A DNA stretch of 64,000 nt from NCBI GenBank assembly GCA_035296065.1, contig DATHBR010000035.1, positions 11,278 through 75,277 on the forward strand. Reading direction: 5' to 3'. This stretch comes from Myxococcaceae bacterium. GTDB lineage: Bacteria > Myxococcota > Myxococcia > Myxococcales > Myxococcaceae. The notes beneath the pieces were generated by a model that searched no databases, had not been told where the DNA came from, and saw only the letters and a list, made by a program, of their open reading frames with translations. This document shows, one piece after another, positions 685 to 57,552 of this stretch; the first letter of the stretch is position 1, and each line of letters opens with the position of its first letter. The position numbers and the translations under genes were made by a program.

Positions 685-1821
685 TTACTGAGAAAATGGG
701 GAGACCCTATTCATCACGAATTTCGGGGGTGCCAGCGCGGCGGCCACACAGGGGCGCGTGTCGTGAGGGGTAACCCTGAGCTGATGGCCCTCCAGCAGCA
801 GCCGCAGAATGTCTTCGACCAGCTCCAGCGCCAGCAGTGACGCGGGGCAGGTGTGCGGGCCCCAGCCAAAGGGCAGGAACGCCTGAGGATTCTTGAGGGT
901 GGCCCACCGCTCGGGCCGGAACCGGGCCGGCTCGTCCCAGTTGTTCGCGCTGCGCTGCATCGCGTACGGACAGACCACCACGGTGTCCCGAGGCGTGACG
1001 GCGATGCCGGCCACCTCGTGGTTCTTCGCGGGCCTGGCGCCCAGGAACCACGCCACCGGCCACAGCCGCAGCGCCTCGCGCACCACCCAGCCCGGTTGGG
1101 CGTCGGTGGGCGGATGGGTGCCCAACAGGTACACCGACCAGCCCAACAGCAACCCCATCGAGCCCACCACGGCGAACACGAACGACAGGAACACCTCCAC
1201 CAGATCCGCCGCCGGCGCGCCAGGCTCCGCCCCGCTGATCACCACGTCGAGCAGATCCGCGGGCTGGGTGATGCCCCGCGCGCGCCTCCGGGCGATCTCC
1301 TGCTTCAGCTCGCGCCCCACCCGGAAGCGGAACAGCGCGCGGCTGAGAAAGGAGTAGCGCTGCTTGGCTCCGGCGAGCACTCCGCGCCGGACCACTTGCT
1401 CCAACGTGTCGCGCAGCCGGGCCGGGCTGTCGGGCGCGAGCAGCACGTTGCCCAGGTGCCGGTACATGAGCCAGTTGCCCGCATCGGGCCACTCACTGGG
1501 CTGCTCCAGCACCTGTCCCACCGAGCTGGCCAACCTGCTGCCCTGCGCGTCCACGTAGTCGCGCAGCAGCGCGCGGCCCGCTCTGGCAATGCGCACCTGG
1601 GCCTCACGCGGACCGAACAGGCCGCGCCGGGTGTGGAAGAAGTCCCCGTGCTCCTCGTAGAGCCCCTCGCCGTTGGCCAGCACCGCCTTGGAGGCCTCGG
1701 GATCCACCAGGCACAGCCTGCGCCCCGGCAGCCAGAAGGCATCGCGCGCGTTCTGCACCGCCTGATCAAGGAAGCGCAGCGGGTCGGCCTCGAACTCGAC
1801 TGTGGGCTCTTGCGCGGCCAA
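685..1821 (-). CDS. Cytochrome P450
   Basis: Heme-thiolate loop FLPFGWGPHTCPA near the C-terminus and overall P450 length. Preferred start is the TTG at 1819-1821, preceded by AAGGAGG with 8-nt spacing, giving MAAQEPTVEFEADP, which aligns with the start of the paralog at 1-475. The upstream-most alternative is the TTG at 1911. Confidence 0.85.
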   Translation of the reverse strand: MAAQEPTVEFEADPLRFLDQAVQNARDAFWLPGRRLCLVDPEASKAVLANGEGLYEEHGDFFHTRRGLFGPREAQVRIARAGRALLRDYVDAQGSRLASSVGQVLEQPSEWPDAGNWLMYRHLGNVLLAPDSPARLRDTLEQVVRRGVLAGAKQRYSFLSRALFRFRVGRELKQEIARRRARGITQPADLLDVVISGAEPGAPAADLVEVFLSFVFAVVGSMGLLLGWSVYLLGTHPPTDAQPGWVVREALRLWPVAWFLGARPAKNHEVAGIAVTPRDTVVVCPYAMQRSANNWDEPARFRPERWATLKNPQAFLPFGWGPHTCPASLLALELVEDILRLLLEGHQLRVTPHDTRPCVAAALAPPKFVMNRVSPFSQ

Positions 1822-2030
1822 GGGGCACCCCTCCTTAAGGGGTTTCTCCGTCAGTAACGAGGACCACTCATTAACCGCTATCTCCGTTACGCCCGCTAGT
1901 ACTGCAAACAACGTGACAAGGGTCCAATCGCTGCTTTCTTGCCCAGTAAAACAGGTTTAAGCCTTGTTTCAGGTATGAATGAAGCCCTTAGTGTTTCATT
2001 TATGGGACCCAGGTTTTCGATTCCGGGAAA

Positions 2031-28706: not shown

Positions 28707-29423
28707 TCAGCGGCTCGTCCACCAGTTCTTGAATTGCTTCCAGGAGATCTTCCCGGTGCGCTCGGTGTCGATGATGTCGAACGCGATGGCCAGCTCGTCG
28801 TCGGTGATGTTCTGGCCCAGCGCCTCGAGCAGCCGTGCGAAGCCGGGGGCCTCGATGTAACCCGTGCGGTTGCGATCATACTTCTGGAAGATATCCAGCA
28901 GCTCGTTGCCAGAGCTGGTCAGGTCATCCACGGCGGCATGCTCGGGCGCCAGCGGCTGGGTGCCGGCGGAGGTCGTCTCCACCACCTCGACGAGCGGCTG
29001 GGCGGACTGGGAGCTCGCGTGGGAGGACCCACGCAGGCTGCGGATCGCCTGGCCCACCGTCTGCTCGGACTGGGCGCTGGGCTGAGGCTCGGCCGCCTTG
29101 GGGCTGCTGGGCGGCGGCGTCTTGCGGGCCTGGGTGCTGGGGGCCTTGCGGGTGGACTTCCGTGCGGCGGCCTTCTGCGGCGCGGCCCTGGCAGCCGTCT
29201 TCGCGGCGCCCTTCTTCGCGGCGGCCTTCTGCGGCGCGGCCTTCTTTGCGGCGGCGGCCTTCTTCGGCGCGGCCTTCTTCGGCGCGGCCTTCTTCGCGGC
29301 GCTCTTCTTCGGCGCGGCCTTCTTCGCGGCGGCCTTCTTCGGCGCGGCCTTCTTCACGGCGGCCTTCTTCGCCGGCTTCTTCTTGGCGGCAGCGGCCTTC
29401 TTCGTCGGCTTCTTCTTCGCCAT
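28707..29423 (-). CDS. Histone H1-like lysine/alanine-rich protein fused to a C-terminal EF-hand-like pair
   Basis: N-terminal (KKAAP/AKKAA)n repeats over ~95 aa. C-terminus carries DRNRTGYIE and DTERTGKIS loops. Confidence 0.8.
29130..29410. repeat. Coding tandem repeat (15/30-bp period, gccttcttcggcgcggc units) encoding the KA-rich tail
   Basis: Seen in the sequence. In-frame, so not CRISPR. Confidence 0.8.
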
Positions 29424-29556: not shown

Positions 29557-29955
29557 ATGAGCGGGGGGATGAGAATCCTGCACACCATGCTGCGCGTGGG
29601 GGACCTGGAGCGCTCTCTGGACTTCTATACCCGCGTGCTGGGTATGAAGCTGCTCAGGCGCAAGGACTACCCAGACGGTAAGTTCACCCTGGCCTTCGTG
29701 GGCTATGGCCCCGAGGACAGCCACCCGGCGCTGGAGCTCACCCACAACTGGGGCACGGAGAAGTACGAGTTGGGCAACGCGTACGGTCACATCGCCCTGG
29801 GGGTGCAGGACATCCGCGCCACGTGCGAGGCCATCCGCCAGGCGGGCGGGAAGATCGTCCGCGAGCCGGGGCCAATGAAGCATGGCACCACGGTGATTGC
29901 CTTCGTCGAGGACCCGGACGGCTACCGGGTGGAACTGATCGAGCAGCGGAACTGA
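29557..29955 (+). CDS. gloA: Lactoylglutathione lyase (glyoxalase I)
   Basis: [30 protein letters not shown] is near-identical in pattern to the E. coli GloA N-terminus. The alternative start is 12 nt downstream at 29569. Confidence 0.9.
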
Positions 29956-54400: not shown

Positions 54401-55735
54401 TCAAGCCTGGGGGCCTGGCACCACCGGGCCCTCGTAGCGCAGGGGCACTCCGTCCTCCGGGGCCAGGGTGACGTTGCGGCGCACGGGCTTGATGGGCCGA
54501 TCATGCGCCAGCGAGAAGCGGTGGGCCGCCAGCAGCGTGCCCAGCACCACCTTCATCTCGTAGAGCGCGAAGGCCGCGCCCAGGCACCGCCGGGCGCCAC
54601 CGCCAAAGGGCAGGTACTCGAAGGGCGAGTACTTGCGCTCCAGGAAGCGCTCGGGCCGGAAGCGCTCCGGCTCCGGGAAGGTGGTGGGGTTGTGGTGGGC
54701 CAGGGTGATGGCCGCCATCACCCCCATGCCCTCGGGCAGCGGGTGCCCGCGCACCGTGAGCGGCGCGCGCAGCTTGCGCGTGACGAGCCCCACCACCGGG
54801 TACAGCCGCAGCGTCTCGTCGCACACCGCCGACAGGTAGGGCAGCTTCGCCAACGCCTCGGGCTCGGGCCGGGGCCCCAGCGTGCTCAGCTCCTGCTCCA
54901 GCCGCTGCTTCGCCTCTGGTGTGCGCAAAAGCCAGTACAGCGCCCACGCCATGCCGATGGCCGTCGTCTCGTGGCCCGCGATGAGCATCGTCAGCAGCTC
55001 GTCCTTCAGCTCGCGCTCGGACAGCGGCTGGCCCTCCTCGTCCCGCACGGACAGCAGCAGGGTGAGGATGTCCTCCCCTCCCCGGCCGTCCGCGCGTCGG
55101 CGGGCGAGCTGCTCGTTCAGCAGCGCATCGAGCGCCTGGGAGTGCCGCTCGAAGCGGGCCCACGGCCCGATGCCGCCAAACGAGCGCCGCAGCGGCACCA
55201 GCAGCATGAGCAGCGGGGTGTACGCGTCGGCATAGACCCCGATCGCCTCCATGAAGCGCCGCACCCGCTCTGGCTCCTCCACGCCGAACACGGCGCGGAT
55301 GATGATCTCCAGGGACATGGCCTGCGTCCGCTGCAGCGCCACCAGCGGCTCGCCCACGCGCAGCCCCTGCACGGCCTCCAGGGCGGCCTGCTGCATCAGC
55401 GTGCCGTAGGCGCGCATCCGCTCGCCATGGAACGACGGCATGAGCAGCCGGCGCTCGCGCTTGTGCCGCTCTCCGGAGAGCAGCAGCATGGAGTTGGCGC
55501 CCACCACCGGCTCGAGCACCACGCGCGACAGCGGCTCGAAGATGGACGGGTCCGCGGAGAAGATCTCCCGGATGCCGTCCGGCTCCCCGGTGGCCACGAT
55601 GGTGCCCATGGGCAGCTTGGCGATGAAGGGATCTCCGTAGCGCTGGGAGTTCTCGCGAAAGAACACCGCGGGGCTCTTCATGAAGCTCAGCGTCTGCAGC
55701 GGAGAGAAGCGCGGTCCTCGAAGTGGCTCGGGCAT
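54401..55735 (-). CDS. Cytochrome P450
   Basis: FGGGARRCLGAAFA heme loop. AGHETT I-helix. Confidence 0.9.
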   Translation of the reverse strand: MPEPLRGPRFSPLQTLSFMKSPAVFFRENSQRYGDPFIAKLPMGTIVATGEPDGIREIFSADPSIFEPLSRVVLEPVVGANSMLLLSGERHKRERRLLMPSFHGERMRAYGTLMQQAALEAVQGLRVGEPLVALQRTQAMSLEIIIRAVFGVEEPERVRRFMEAIGVYADAYTPLLMLLVPLRRSFGGIGPWARFERHSQALDALLNEQLARRRADGRGGEDILTLLLSVRDEEGQPLSERELKDELLTMLIAGHETTAIGMAWALYWLLRTPEAKQRLEQELSTLGPRPEPEALAKLPYLSAVCDETLRLYPVVGLVTRKLRAPLTVRGHPLPEGMGVMAAITLAHHNPTTFPEPERFRPERFLERKYSPFEYLPFGGGARRCLGAAFALYEMKVVLGTLLAAHRFSLAHDRPIKPVRRNVTLAPEDGVPLRYEGPVVPGPQA

Positions 55736-55825
55736 GAAGCTCCTTGGCCAGGGAGAATATCCTCGCCCGGGAAGGCGGGTAACCCGAGAATGGGTTCATC
55801 CGTAGTAGCTCGTGGAGGTAGCGCC

Positions 55826-56518
55826 ATGAAGCCCGCCCTGTCCCAGAATGGATCGCCCGCCCGGCTGCTGCCCCTGGATGCCCAGGCTCCCACGGGGGTG
55901 GAGACGGCCACCTTCGCGTTGGGTTGATTCTGGGGCCCTGACGCCCGGTTCGGGTGTCTACCTGGAGTTATCCGCACCCGCGTGGGCTACACCGGCGGCA
56001 CGCTGCCGGATCCCACGTATGAGCACCTGGGAGATCACACCGAGTCCTTGCAGATCGACTTCGATCCCCAGCGCATCTCCTACGCGGAGCTGCTGAAGCT
56101 CTTCTGGGAGGATCATGATCCCAGCGAGCAGCCCTACAACGTCCAGTACATGTCCGCGGTGTTCTACGCGGACACGACGCAGTGGGCGCAGGCGCTCGAG
56201 ACGGGCAAGCAGCGCCTGGCGGGCAAGACGGTGACGTTGCGCACGCCGATCCGGCCGCTGGCCACCTTCTACCGGGCCGAGGACTACCACCAGAAGTACT
56301 ACCTGCGCCGGTACTCGAATCTGATGAGCGAGTTCGAAGGCTACGGCGAGCAGTCCTTCACGGACTCCACCGTCGCGGCGCGGCTCAACGGGTACGTGGG
56401 CGGCTACCGCCCGGTGGAGTCGCTGGCGGCGGAGCTCGAGCCGCTCGGGCTGTCCGAGCGGGGCCGCAAGCAGCTCCTCTCCCTGGTGACGGAGACCCTG
56501 GCGCGGCGCCGGTACTAA
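55826..56518 (+). CDS. msrA: Peptide methionine sulfoxide reductase MsrA, probable selenoprotein (in-frame TGA at 55925-55927 at the catalytic Cys position)
   Basis: The frame reads ATFALG-TGA-FWGPDARFGCLPGVIRTRVGYTGG..., matching the MsrA consensus AtFAgGCFWG...pGV...vGYTGG. GGAGGT RBS 7 nt before the ATG at 55826. A hairpin at 55940-55958 lies 12 nt after the TGA. Conventional calling gives only 55982-56518 (GTG start), which lacks the catalytic motif. Confidence 0.6.
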
Positions 56519-56523
56519 AGCCT

Positions 56524-57552
56524 TTAGCGCACCGCGCGCGCCAGCTCGCGGCCTCCCAGCAGCACGCTGCCCACCAGCCCCAGCCCCGCGGCGAGCACTC
56601 CGGCCGTCATGCCCGCGCGCACCCAGCGCGGCGTGGGCGGCACGCTGCCGTACTGGCCCACGCCCTCGGGCGTGGAGTGGAACAGGTTGCCGTCCGGCCG
56701 GGAGATGGGCTCGGGGCGCTGCTGCATGGGCACACCCCAGCGGGCCATGATGGCGTTGCCCACGAAGGGCACCACCGTGTCGGCGAACAGCATCAGCCAG
56801 CCCTGGAGGAACACCGGCACGCGCGTGCGCCCCGGGTACAGCGCGCACCGCACCACGCAGCGCGCGGCCACGTCCGGCTCGTAGACCGGAGGCAGGGGCT
56901 TCGGCGCCCGCACCAGCTGCGTGGGCGCGTGATCGAACATTGGCGTGGACACGCTGGGCACCAGGACGCCCGACACCTGGATGCCCGAGCCCTTCAGCTC
57001 CAGCGTGAGGCTCTTCTGCCAACCCAGCAGCGCGTGCTTGGCCGCGGCGTAGACGGACAGCAGCGGCGCGGCGCCCTTGGACAGCATGGACAGGACGTTG
57101 ATGATGTGGCCGCCACGCTGGCTGCGAAAGTGCGGCAGCACCGCGCGGGCAAAGCGCATGTAGCCGAAGCACGTCACATCGAAGGTGCGGGTGATGTGCT
57201 CCCAGGGCAGCTCCTCGAAGAGGCCATAGGACTGCACCGCCGCGTCATTGACGAGGATGTCCACCCGGCCATAGCGCTCGACGCACTGGCGCACGACGTT
57301 GTCCACGTCCTCCTGCTCGGACACGTCTCCGGCCACCACGAGACACTCGGCGCCCCGGGCCTCCAGCAACTGACGCAACTCCTCGAGCGCCTCGTGACGC
57401 CGCGCCGTCACGCACAGGCGCACGCCCTGCTCCGCCAGCCGGACCGCGCACTGCCAGCCCACCCCGCTGGATGCCCCCGTCACGATGGCCACCTGTCCGC
57501 GCAGTTCTTGCTTTCCCACGTTGGCTCCTTTGAGCCCTCCAAGGCTGGGCAT
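56524..57552 (-). CDS. SDR family oxidoreductase with C-terminal membrane-associated extension
   Basis: VTGASSGVG, NDAAV and YAAAKHA motifs. Confidence 0.8.
   Translation of the reverse strand: MPSLGGLKGANVGKQELRGQVAIVTGASSGVGWQCAVRLAEQGVRLCVTARRHEALEELRQLLEARGAECLVVAGDVSEQEDVDNVVRQCVERYGRVDILVNDAAVQSYGLFEELPWEHITRTFDVTCFGYMRFARAVLPHFRSQRGGHIINVLSMLSKGAAPLLSVYAAAKHALLGWQKSLTLELKGSGIQVSGVLVPSVSTPMFDHAPTQLVRAPKPLPPVYEPDVAARCVVRCALYPGRTRVPVFLQGWLMLFADTVVPFVGNAIMARWGVPMQQRPEPISRPDGNLFHSTPEGVGQYGSVPPTPRWVRAGMTAGVLAAGLGLVGSVLLGGRELARAVR

Follow-up and report, generated by a model that had tools for sequence, protein, structure and literature searches.

The closest characterised relative of the gene described here is the methionine sulfoxide reductase A (MsrA) of Clostridium (Alkaliphilus) oremlandii OhILAs, hereafter CoMsrA, a natural selenoprotein with a catalytic selenocysteine (Sec16) which belongs to the 1-Cys type, devoid of a resolving Cys, and is reduced by glutaredoxin and not by thioredoxin (PMC4479559). 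CoMsrA carries a helical domain that is absent from other characterised MsrAs and essential for active-site formation, and its Sec form exceeds the Cys form 20-fold in activity (PMC4479559). In a 2026 review, MsrA, with the motif GUFWG/H, is on the list of experimentally verified bacterial selenoprotein families (PMC13188914), and a Sec-MsrA had been predicted in Syntrophobacter fumaroxidans by Zhang et al. 2006 (PMC1794560 Table 3). In Eukarya, for example in Chlamydomonas and other algae, Sec replaces the catalytic Cys of MsrA as well (PMC13188914, PMC1088965), but the SECIS is located in the 3'-UTR and has a different architecture. The bacterial SECIS (bSECIS) model is defined by an apical loop of 3-9 nt, an upper stem of 4-16 bp, a distance of 16-37 nt from the UGA to the loop and an MFE <= -7.5 kcal/mol, with G in the first two loop positions, usually followed by G or U (PMC13188914 Fig. 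2). Selenoprotein genes are routinely mis-annotated as truncated proteins (PMC13188914).

The window analysed here is a stretch of DNA of 64 kb, and the region 55826-56518 of its forward strand is very probably an intact gene for a functional Sec-MsrA. It is a mis-annotated representative of an already known and characterised selenoprotein family and does not define a new one, because every testable feature of the known Sec-MsrA family was found in it. The elements of the gene are the following:

55826..56518, forward strand: full-length msrA coding sequence, 230 codons plus TAA, with the predicted selenocysteine as codon 34.
55814..55818, forward strand: ribosome-binding site GGAGG, read directly, 7 nt before the ATG at 55826 and invariant, with the same spacing, in 14 orthologues.
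55925..55927, forward strand: UGA selenocysteine codon at the catalytic position of G-U-F-W-G, placed by alignment to CoMsrA Cys16 and to the Cys of full-length homologues.
55982..56518, forward strand: 178-aa ORF starting with GTG, an annotation artefact corresponding to the 3' three-quarters of the real gene.

The coding sequence is one frame with a single internal stop, the TGA, and a terminal TAA at 56516-56518; its translation reads MKPALSQNGSPARLLPLDAQAPTGVETATFALG up to the internal stop and resumes with FWGPDARFGCLPGVIRTRVGYTGG, the residues TATFALG being the last before the TGA. The initial annotation, made from the sequence alone, had placed the start at ATG 55826 behind a GGAGGT ribosome-binding site, had noticed that the annotatable ORF lacks the catalytic motif, which is recovered by reading upstream in the same frame, and had located the TGA exactly at the catalytic Cys codon; translation of the region agrees with this description on every point, the stop being flanked by G and FWG. 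The mechanical ORF list of the msrA region contains only the 178-aa piece, and each of the three public assemblies, from JGI, ENA and Logan, has msrA called as two pieces of 33 aa and 178 aa. Among database proteins, the nearest ones (60-94% identity) all have a length of about 178-183 aa and start at or near the same internal GTG, a pattern typical of a conserved stop codon.

In a genome scan with one genome per species, 386 loci were found to encode a relative, and the best 80 of these 386 were examined at the catalytic codon, which is TGA in 75/80 and TGT in 5/80. The TGT carriers are five Microcoleus cyanobacteria, none of them with a hairpin that passes the SECIS criteria. Within the same best 80, the motifs at the TGA loci are GUFWG, GUFWT, GUFWH and GUFWE, and the carriers belong to at least ten phyla (Myxococcota, Desulfobacterota, Planctomycetota, Chloroflexota, Acidobacteriota, Gemmatimonadota, Actinomycetota, Spirochaetota, Firmicutes and Alphaproteobacteria), many being Desulfobacterota or Syntrophales. 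The initial annotation had regarded Sec-MsrA as a rare form, a view that does not hold for the subfamily with the helical domain, in which, on these counts from the best 80 of 386, Sec looks usual. It had also proposed to ask whether orthologues carry TGA or a Cys codon and whether the hairpin is kept; as stated above, TGA prevails, and the hairpin is retained in the Sec forms. Among myxobacteria, TGA carriers include Archangium, Vitiosangium and Hyalangium, with two genomes of A. gephyra (L010, L015), and in the 14 myxobacterial orthologues the ATG, the GGAGG at fixed spacing, the 33-codon N-terminal arm and the TGA are all kept. The closest relative in the best 80 of 386 is found in a Myxococcaceae MAG (87% amino-acid identity), and the flanking P450 and SDR genes are common to both loci.

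For protein searches, Cys was substituted for the internal stop, and two domains were recognised:

55904..56314, forward strand: MsrA catalytic (PMSR) domain, PF01625, residues 27-163, Pfam 6.5e-38, profile positions 1-148 of 153.
56360..56458, forward strand: helical domain, PF20939 (MsrA_helical), Pfam 1.1e-8, aligned with CoMsrA up to residue 208 of 209-217.

The description of PF20939 in Pfam is [quoted passage not shown], and the TIGR00401 msrA score (113.5 bits) is above the cutoff of 108.1. The best solved relatives are the C. oremlandii MsrA structures 4LWJ, 4LWK, 4LWM and 4U66 of the PDB (E 2e-54, residues 26-224). The two proteins align over about 200 residues, sharing G-U-FWGPDA, the catalytic Glu and the Tyr-Tyr pair: in the alignment, Sec34 of the window protein corresponds to Cys16 of CoMsrA (natural Sec16), E73 to the catalytic E55, and Y158/Y159 to Y140/Y141, with E73 and Y158/Y159 invariant throughout the family alignment. 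Full-length homologues containing Cys also exist (P0008-P0020), and their Cys aligns with the TGA codon of the window. As in CoMsrA, a C-terminal helical domain is present and a conserved resolving cysteine is absent, which is the configuration of the 1-Cys type; the sole cysteine of the window protein, C44, stands at a position where relatives have Arg, Ser, Val, Ala or Leu.

The window protein differs from CoMsrA in its 25-residue N-terminal extension and in the non-conserved C44, which is encoded in the 3' arm of the SECIS stem. The hosts differ too, CoMsrA coming from an anaerobic Firmicute and the window gene from a high-GC soil myxobacterium, in a clade whose cultured members are mostly aerobic. 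The Sec-MsrA of Deltaproteobacteria such as S. fumaroxidans (PMC1794560) belongs to the same selenoprotein family and has the same motif, but those organisms are selenoprotein-rich anaerobes, whereas the window gene lies in the Myxococcaceae/Archangiaceae, whose selenoproteomes are tiny (PMC5029168).

In the proposed mechanism, translation would begin at ATG 55826, selenocysteine would be inserted at the UGA 55925-55927 instead of termination, and 55826-56518 would encode one 230-residue peptide-methionine (S)-S-oxide reductase of the 1-Cys type (1-Sec in this case), with selenocysteine as residue 34. The selenolate would attack methionine-S-sulfoxide, giving methionine and a selenenic acid. 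Since a conserved resolving cysteine is absent, the enzyme would probably be recycled by an external thiol reductant, which, by analogy with the C. oremlandii enzyme, may be of the glutaredoxin/glutathione type; a selenoprotein Grx gene was not seen near msrA.

The insertion of Sec at a UGA would be directed by an RNA element within the coding sequence, for which msrA offers a candidate:

55925..55970, forward strand: predicted bacterial SECIS element, with lower stem 55925-55934/55961-55970, upper stem 55940-55946/55952-55958 and apical loop GGUUC 55947-55951.

The hairpin had been described in the initial annotation as a 7-bp stem with a 5-nt GGUUC loop at 55940-55958, having the spacing and loop character of a bacterial SECIS, and both the structure and the resemblance were recovered. 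The upper stem, GACGCCC/GGGUGUC with one G-U pair, begins 12 nt past the TGA. In the RNAfold prediction it has 8 bp, an additional G-C pair closing the loop to GUU, and is accompanied by a 10-bp lower stem which contains the UGA itself. With a loop of 3-5 nt, an upper stem of 7-8 bp, a distance of 19-20 nt from the UGA and an energy of -12.1 kcal/mol, the hairpin lies within all four published bSECIS constraints. Folding of 61 nt gives -27.2 kcal/mol (z = -2.0 versus dinucleotide shuffles) and folding of 48 nt gives -23.8 kcal/mol. In a control with 2000 sequences encoding the same peptide with the codon usage of the window, 1.6% fold as well (z = -2.4). At 2280 other in-frame positions of the same genes, the SECIS criteria are passed at all by 7.4%, and a SECIS-type hairpin of equal stability (-12.1 kcal/mol) is present in 21 (0.9%).

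Like the SECIS of the E. coli fdhF type, the window hairpin lies within the coding sequence, starts at the UGA and has a small apical loop with G followed by G/U; it differs in that its primary sequence is unrelated, its register and bulges vary between lineages and its role as a SECIS is predicted. In the loop, the G of column 24 and the U of column 26 do not vary among 76 Sec forms, and the U of column 25 is conserved in more than 90%. A strict SECIS test that does not allow bulges is passed by 50/76 Sec forms, 49 of these 50 with a spacing of 18-20 nt, and the stems of the remaining 26 are apparently bulged or shifted; the test is passed by 0/5 Cys forms. Over 48 nt, the Sec forms fold with a mean energy of -19.0 kcal/mol versus -8.8 to -11.0 for the Cys forms. 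A permissive Rfam scan of 55700-56200 returned chance lncRNA matches (E > 4) and no SECIS family, a negative that counts only if Rfam contains a model for this type of SECIS.

Selection on the hairpin as RNA was examined in an ungapped alignment of the 76 Sec forms (A3). The window structure pairs 76% of the cells of the alignment, versus 39-60% when the register is slid, and its covariation score is reached by 0/500 shuffles; these fixed-register counts are underestimates, since in several lineages the stem is shifted or contains a bulge. The clearest exchange is seen at pair 19-31 of the upper stem, which is U-A in 22 sequences, G-C in 18, G-U in 13 and U-G in 8. Both bases of this pair are non-synonymous, and therefore the pairing appears as covariation of amino acids: in 20 sequences Ser(UCC) at +6 is accompanied by Ser(AGY) at +10, and in 22 sequences Ala(GCC) at +6 is accompanied by Cys(UGU) or Arg(CGU) at +10. 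Codon choice in the Sec forms follows a similar pattern:

Gly codon at +9: GGG in 68 and GGA in 8, never GGC or GGT; other Gly codons in the same genes prefer GGC.
Arg codon at +7: CGG in 38 and AGG in 8, never CGC; other Arg codons in the same genes prefer CGC.
Ala codon at +6: GCC in 44/46.

These synonymous choices fit base pairing rather than codon usage, and the alignment as a whole shows the upper stem to be under selection at the RNA level. For the lower stem, two-sided covariation was not found in the 76 Sec forms, so that this stem is predicted only, and it may simply mirror the conserved peptide.

As to the selenocysteine machinery, ARAGORN detected no tRNA in the 64-kb window and no tRNA-Sec in 83 loci; one "tRNA-???" call, at locus L012, overlaps the 3' end of msrA and looks like a false positive. 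A tblastn search with E. coli SelA, SelB and SelD gave no selA, selB or selD at E <= 1e-3 in the window or in any of the relatives' loci, and no selenium-metabolism gene was recognised among about 40 annotated genes of the window (about 30 further ORFs by Pfam). The case for Sec decoding in this organism therefore rests on relatives and on the literature. Myxococcus xanthus, M. fulvus, M. stipitatus, Corallococcus coralloides, Cystobacter fuscus and Stigmatella aurantiaca are listed as Sec users (PMC5029168, 2016, Table S2), the published selenoproteomes of the host clade (Myxococcaceae/Archangiaceae) comprise 1-3 genes (PMC5029168 Table S2), and a tRNA-SeC is reported in the genome of Archangium gephyra DSM 2261 (PMC5441343). 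Decoding of the msrA UGA in this organism would be SelB-dependent.

The window was also scanned for other genes interrupted by TGA, with five candidates and none carrying a redox motif; the filter missed msrA itself because its N-terminal arm is short. Two of the candidates, at 29953 and 12672, are clearly pairs of consecutive genes that share a frame, the first of them ending at the TGA. Pfam also assigns Major Vault Protein (MVP) domains, a family best known from eukaryotic vault particles, to a 762-aa protein encoded at 30857-33145 on the reverse strand of the window.

Low-level read-through of UGA occurs in bacteria, and the Sec machinery of this genome is deduced from relatives; an msrA whose UGA is decoded otherwise, either by near-cognate read-through to Trp or Cys or by local reassignment of the stop, to give a Cys- or Trp-MsrA, has then to be considered. 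This is very unlikely. As an ordinary stop, TGA is used more than any other codon in the window (20/34 long genes), and therefore UGA is not globally reassigned. Simple read-through leaves the conserved hairpin, with its G/U apical loop and SECIS spacing, without a role, relatives of the host are on the published lists of Sec users, and the closest characterised homologue is a proven selenoprotein which is, as mentioned, far more active than its Cys form (PMC4479559).

Insertion of Sec, with a single product, has also to be weighed against an arrangement of two products, in which the 33-residue peptide and a truncated 178-residue MsrA-like protein, initiated at GTG 55982, would be made separately and the latter would have a non-catalytic role. 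This would match the automated annotation, including the 182-aa NCBI entry from Vitiosangium named "peptide methionine sulfoxide reductase", but is extremely unlikely. The truncated form would be deprived of the catalytic residue and of the first PMSR strands, the Pfam match starting at residue 27; nothing like GGAGG is found just upstream of GTG 55982, whereas ATG 55826 has the conserved one; and the residues encoded from the TGA to the GTG, FWGPDA[RQ]FG..PGV[IV]RTR, are conserved at the protein level in every relative, the Cys forms among them.

The splitting of msrA by gene callers and the absence of visible Sec machinery from the 64-kb window would also be compatible with a pseudogene, in which a nonsense mutation changed the catalytic Cys codon (TGT or TGC) to TGA and left the downstream ORF to decay. 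The initial annotation had considered decay improbable, and comparative data bear it out to the point that this explanation is barely credible and may be taken as effectively refuted: the same TGA is shared by the 75/80 species-level genomes (best 80 of 386) in at least ten phyla, the msrA frame contains no frameshifts or further stops, the start codon and ribosome-binding site are conserved, nucleotide differences from the closest orthologue (L004) fall mostly at third codon positions (2/2/10 by codon position), and the hairpin is selected at synonymous sites. A sequencing or assembly error at the TGA, finally, has a negligible probability and is already refuted, because the three independent public assemblies, from JGI, ENA and Logan, agree throughout a 900-nt region around msrA and TGA recurs in 75 other genomes (best 80 of 386). 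Judged from the sequences compared, neither a pseudogene nor a truncated protein nor an error can account for the comparative pattern, and the proposal of a selenocysteine-containing MsrA with a bacterial SECIS, put forward in the initial annotation, is supported by the conserved TGA, by covariation and codon choice in the hairpin, by the conserved start and ribosome-binding site and by membership in the Sec-MsrA subfamily.

Upstream of this Sec-MsrA gene, in the 14 myxobacterial orthologues, the blocks GGGAAG..GTAAC and GGTTCATCCGTAGA are near-invariant, and the sequence farther upstream is not alignable. A promoter may be drawn from these blocks:

55779..55804, forward strand: candidate ECF-sigma-type promoter GTAAC-N17-CGTA, suggested by the conserved upstream blocks.

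Promoters of ECF sigma factors have the consensus AAC (-35) and CGT (-10), separated by 16-17 nt. GTAAC-N17-CGTA has a single match in the 64-kb window (0.01 expected), and no sigma-70-like promoter was found in 55600-56700, which points to a possible stress-type (ECF) promoter upstream of msrA. ECF control of msrA/msrAB is documented in Neisseria, including Neisseria gonorrhoeae, and in Haemophilus.

A wider reading, which could equally well hold or fail as a whole, combines these observations: Sec would be the default in the MsrA subfamily with the helical domain (75/80 of the best 80 of 386, at least ten phyla, including soil myxobacteria), its members would be stored in databases as dead fragments of about 178 aa, the SECIS would shape residues +6 (Ala/Ser) and +10 (Cys/Arg/Ser/Val) purely via pairing, and in myxobacteria an ECF-type stress promoter may drive the gene. 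No new mechanism and no new family are revealed. Mildly new are the scale, with Sec dominating the closest 80 species of the subfamily (best 80 of 386), and the host clade, that of soil myxobacteria with tiny selenoproteomes. The locus offers a clean and well-sampled case in which a SECIS in the coding region constrains both codon choice and amino-acid sequence. The practical value is for annotation: dozens of orthologues, including the 182-aa RefSeq protein of Vitiosangium, are recorded without the catalytic residue, and because msrA is recorded as truncated fragments, metabolic and stress inferences miss a functional and probably highly active repair enzyme. For the soil myxobacteria, presumed users of very few selenoproteins, the gene adds one more, and the ECF-type promoter, if true, would tie the use of selenium to oxidative-stress repair in these predators.

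At the base-paired columns 19 and 31 of A3, the ungapped alignment of 76 Sec forms of msrA, which correspond to 55943-55957 (+) in the window, residues +6 and +10 (counted from Sec) covary: Ser(AGY) at +10 is accompanied by Ser(UCC) at +6, while Cys(UGU) or Arg(CGU) at +10 goes with Ala(GCC) at +6. The SECIS pairing thus forces an amino-acid covariation in the MsrA enzyme. C44, the sole cysteine of the window MsrA, is there as the 3' arm of the SECIS stem and not as a resolving Cys.

Selenoprotein MsrA is systematically mis-annotated, as loci L007 and L001-L003 show. The window gene is cut into products of 33 and 178 aa by the JGI, ENA and Logan gene calls, and in public annotation, NCBI included, the orthologues are fragments of about 178-183 aa without the catalytic residue, as in the Vitiosangium sp. 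GDMCC 1.1324 record (protein P0065; locus L007, NZ_PZOX01000003.1). In Archangium (L012, 6653-6726), the msrA 3' end is overlapped by an ARAGORN call of 'tRNA-???' with a two-base anticodon (cc), probably a false positive.

A scan for TGA-interrupted genes returned five further in-frame TGAs in the window, with high-GC3 sequence on either side:

18624 (+), in-frame TGA
11863 (+), in-frame TGA
29953 (+), in-frame TGA
12672 (-), in-frame TGA
41585 (-), in-frame TGA

A redox motif was found at none of these five sites, and those at 29953 and 12672 are each clearly the end of one gene followed by the next in the same frame.

The window also holds three cytochrome P450 genes, the last a divergent neighbour of msrA, and two other proteins of note:

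685-1911 (-), cytochrome P450
22736-24304 (-), cytochrome P450
54401-55735 (-), cytochrome P450, 90 nt from msrA
30857-33145 (-), MVP homologue, 762 aa, strong Pfam matches
28707-29423 (-), EF-hand protein, 238 aa, EF-hand pairs at the C-terminus

The P450-msrA pair is likewise adjacent in the closest MAG (L004), and in the remoter relatives L033 and L009 a P450 homologue lies about 2 kb upstream of msrA. Major Vault Protein (MVP) is chiefly known from eukaryotic vault particles; the 762-aa product, matching MVP_shoulder (2e-45), Vault_2 (2e-32), Vault (2e-30), Vault_3 (2e-21) and also Vault_4, is an MVP homologue of bacterial origin, encoded here by a myxobacterium. The N-terminal part of the EF-hand protein resembles histone H1-like HC2 and is of low complexity.

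In five Planctomycetota relatives (L045, L059, L061, L073 and L079), the Sec-MsrA motifs are GUFWH, GUFWE or GUFWT, and the N-termini are hydrophobic with a Cys at the end, e.g. MKLWPWGLLSGASALLVGCDQ. They look like lipoprotein signal peptides which, if real, suggest that these forms are exported.

Upstream of msrA (55769-55805, +), the blocks GGGAAG..GTAAC and GGTTCATCCGTAGA are conserved in 14 myxobacterial orthologues and together read GTAAC-N17-CGTA, a pattern with a single match across the 64-kb window. No sigma-70-like promoter was found near msrA (55600-56700). The pattern resembles the ECF-sigma consensus (AAC-N16/17-CGT), making it a candidate ECF-type promoter; if so, this suggests that the selenoprotein MsrA is expressed under stress regulation.
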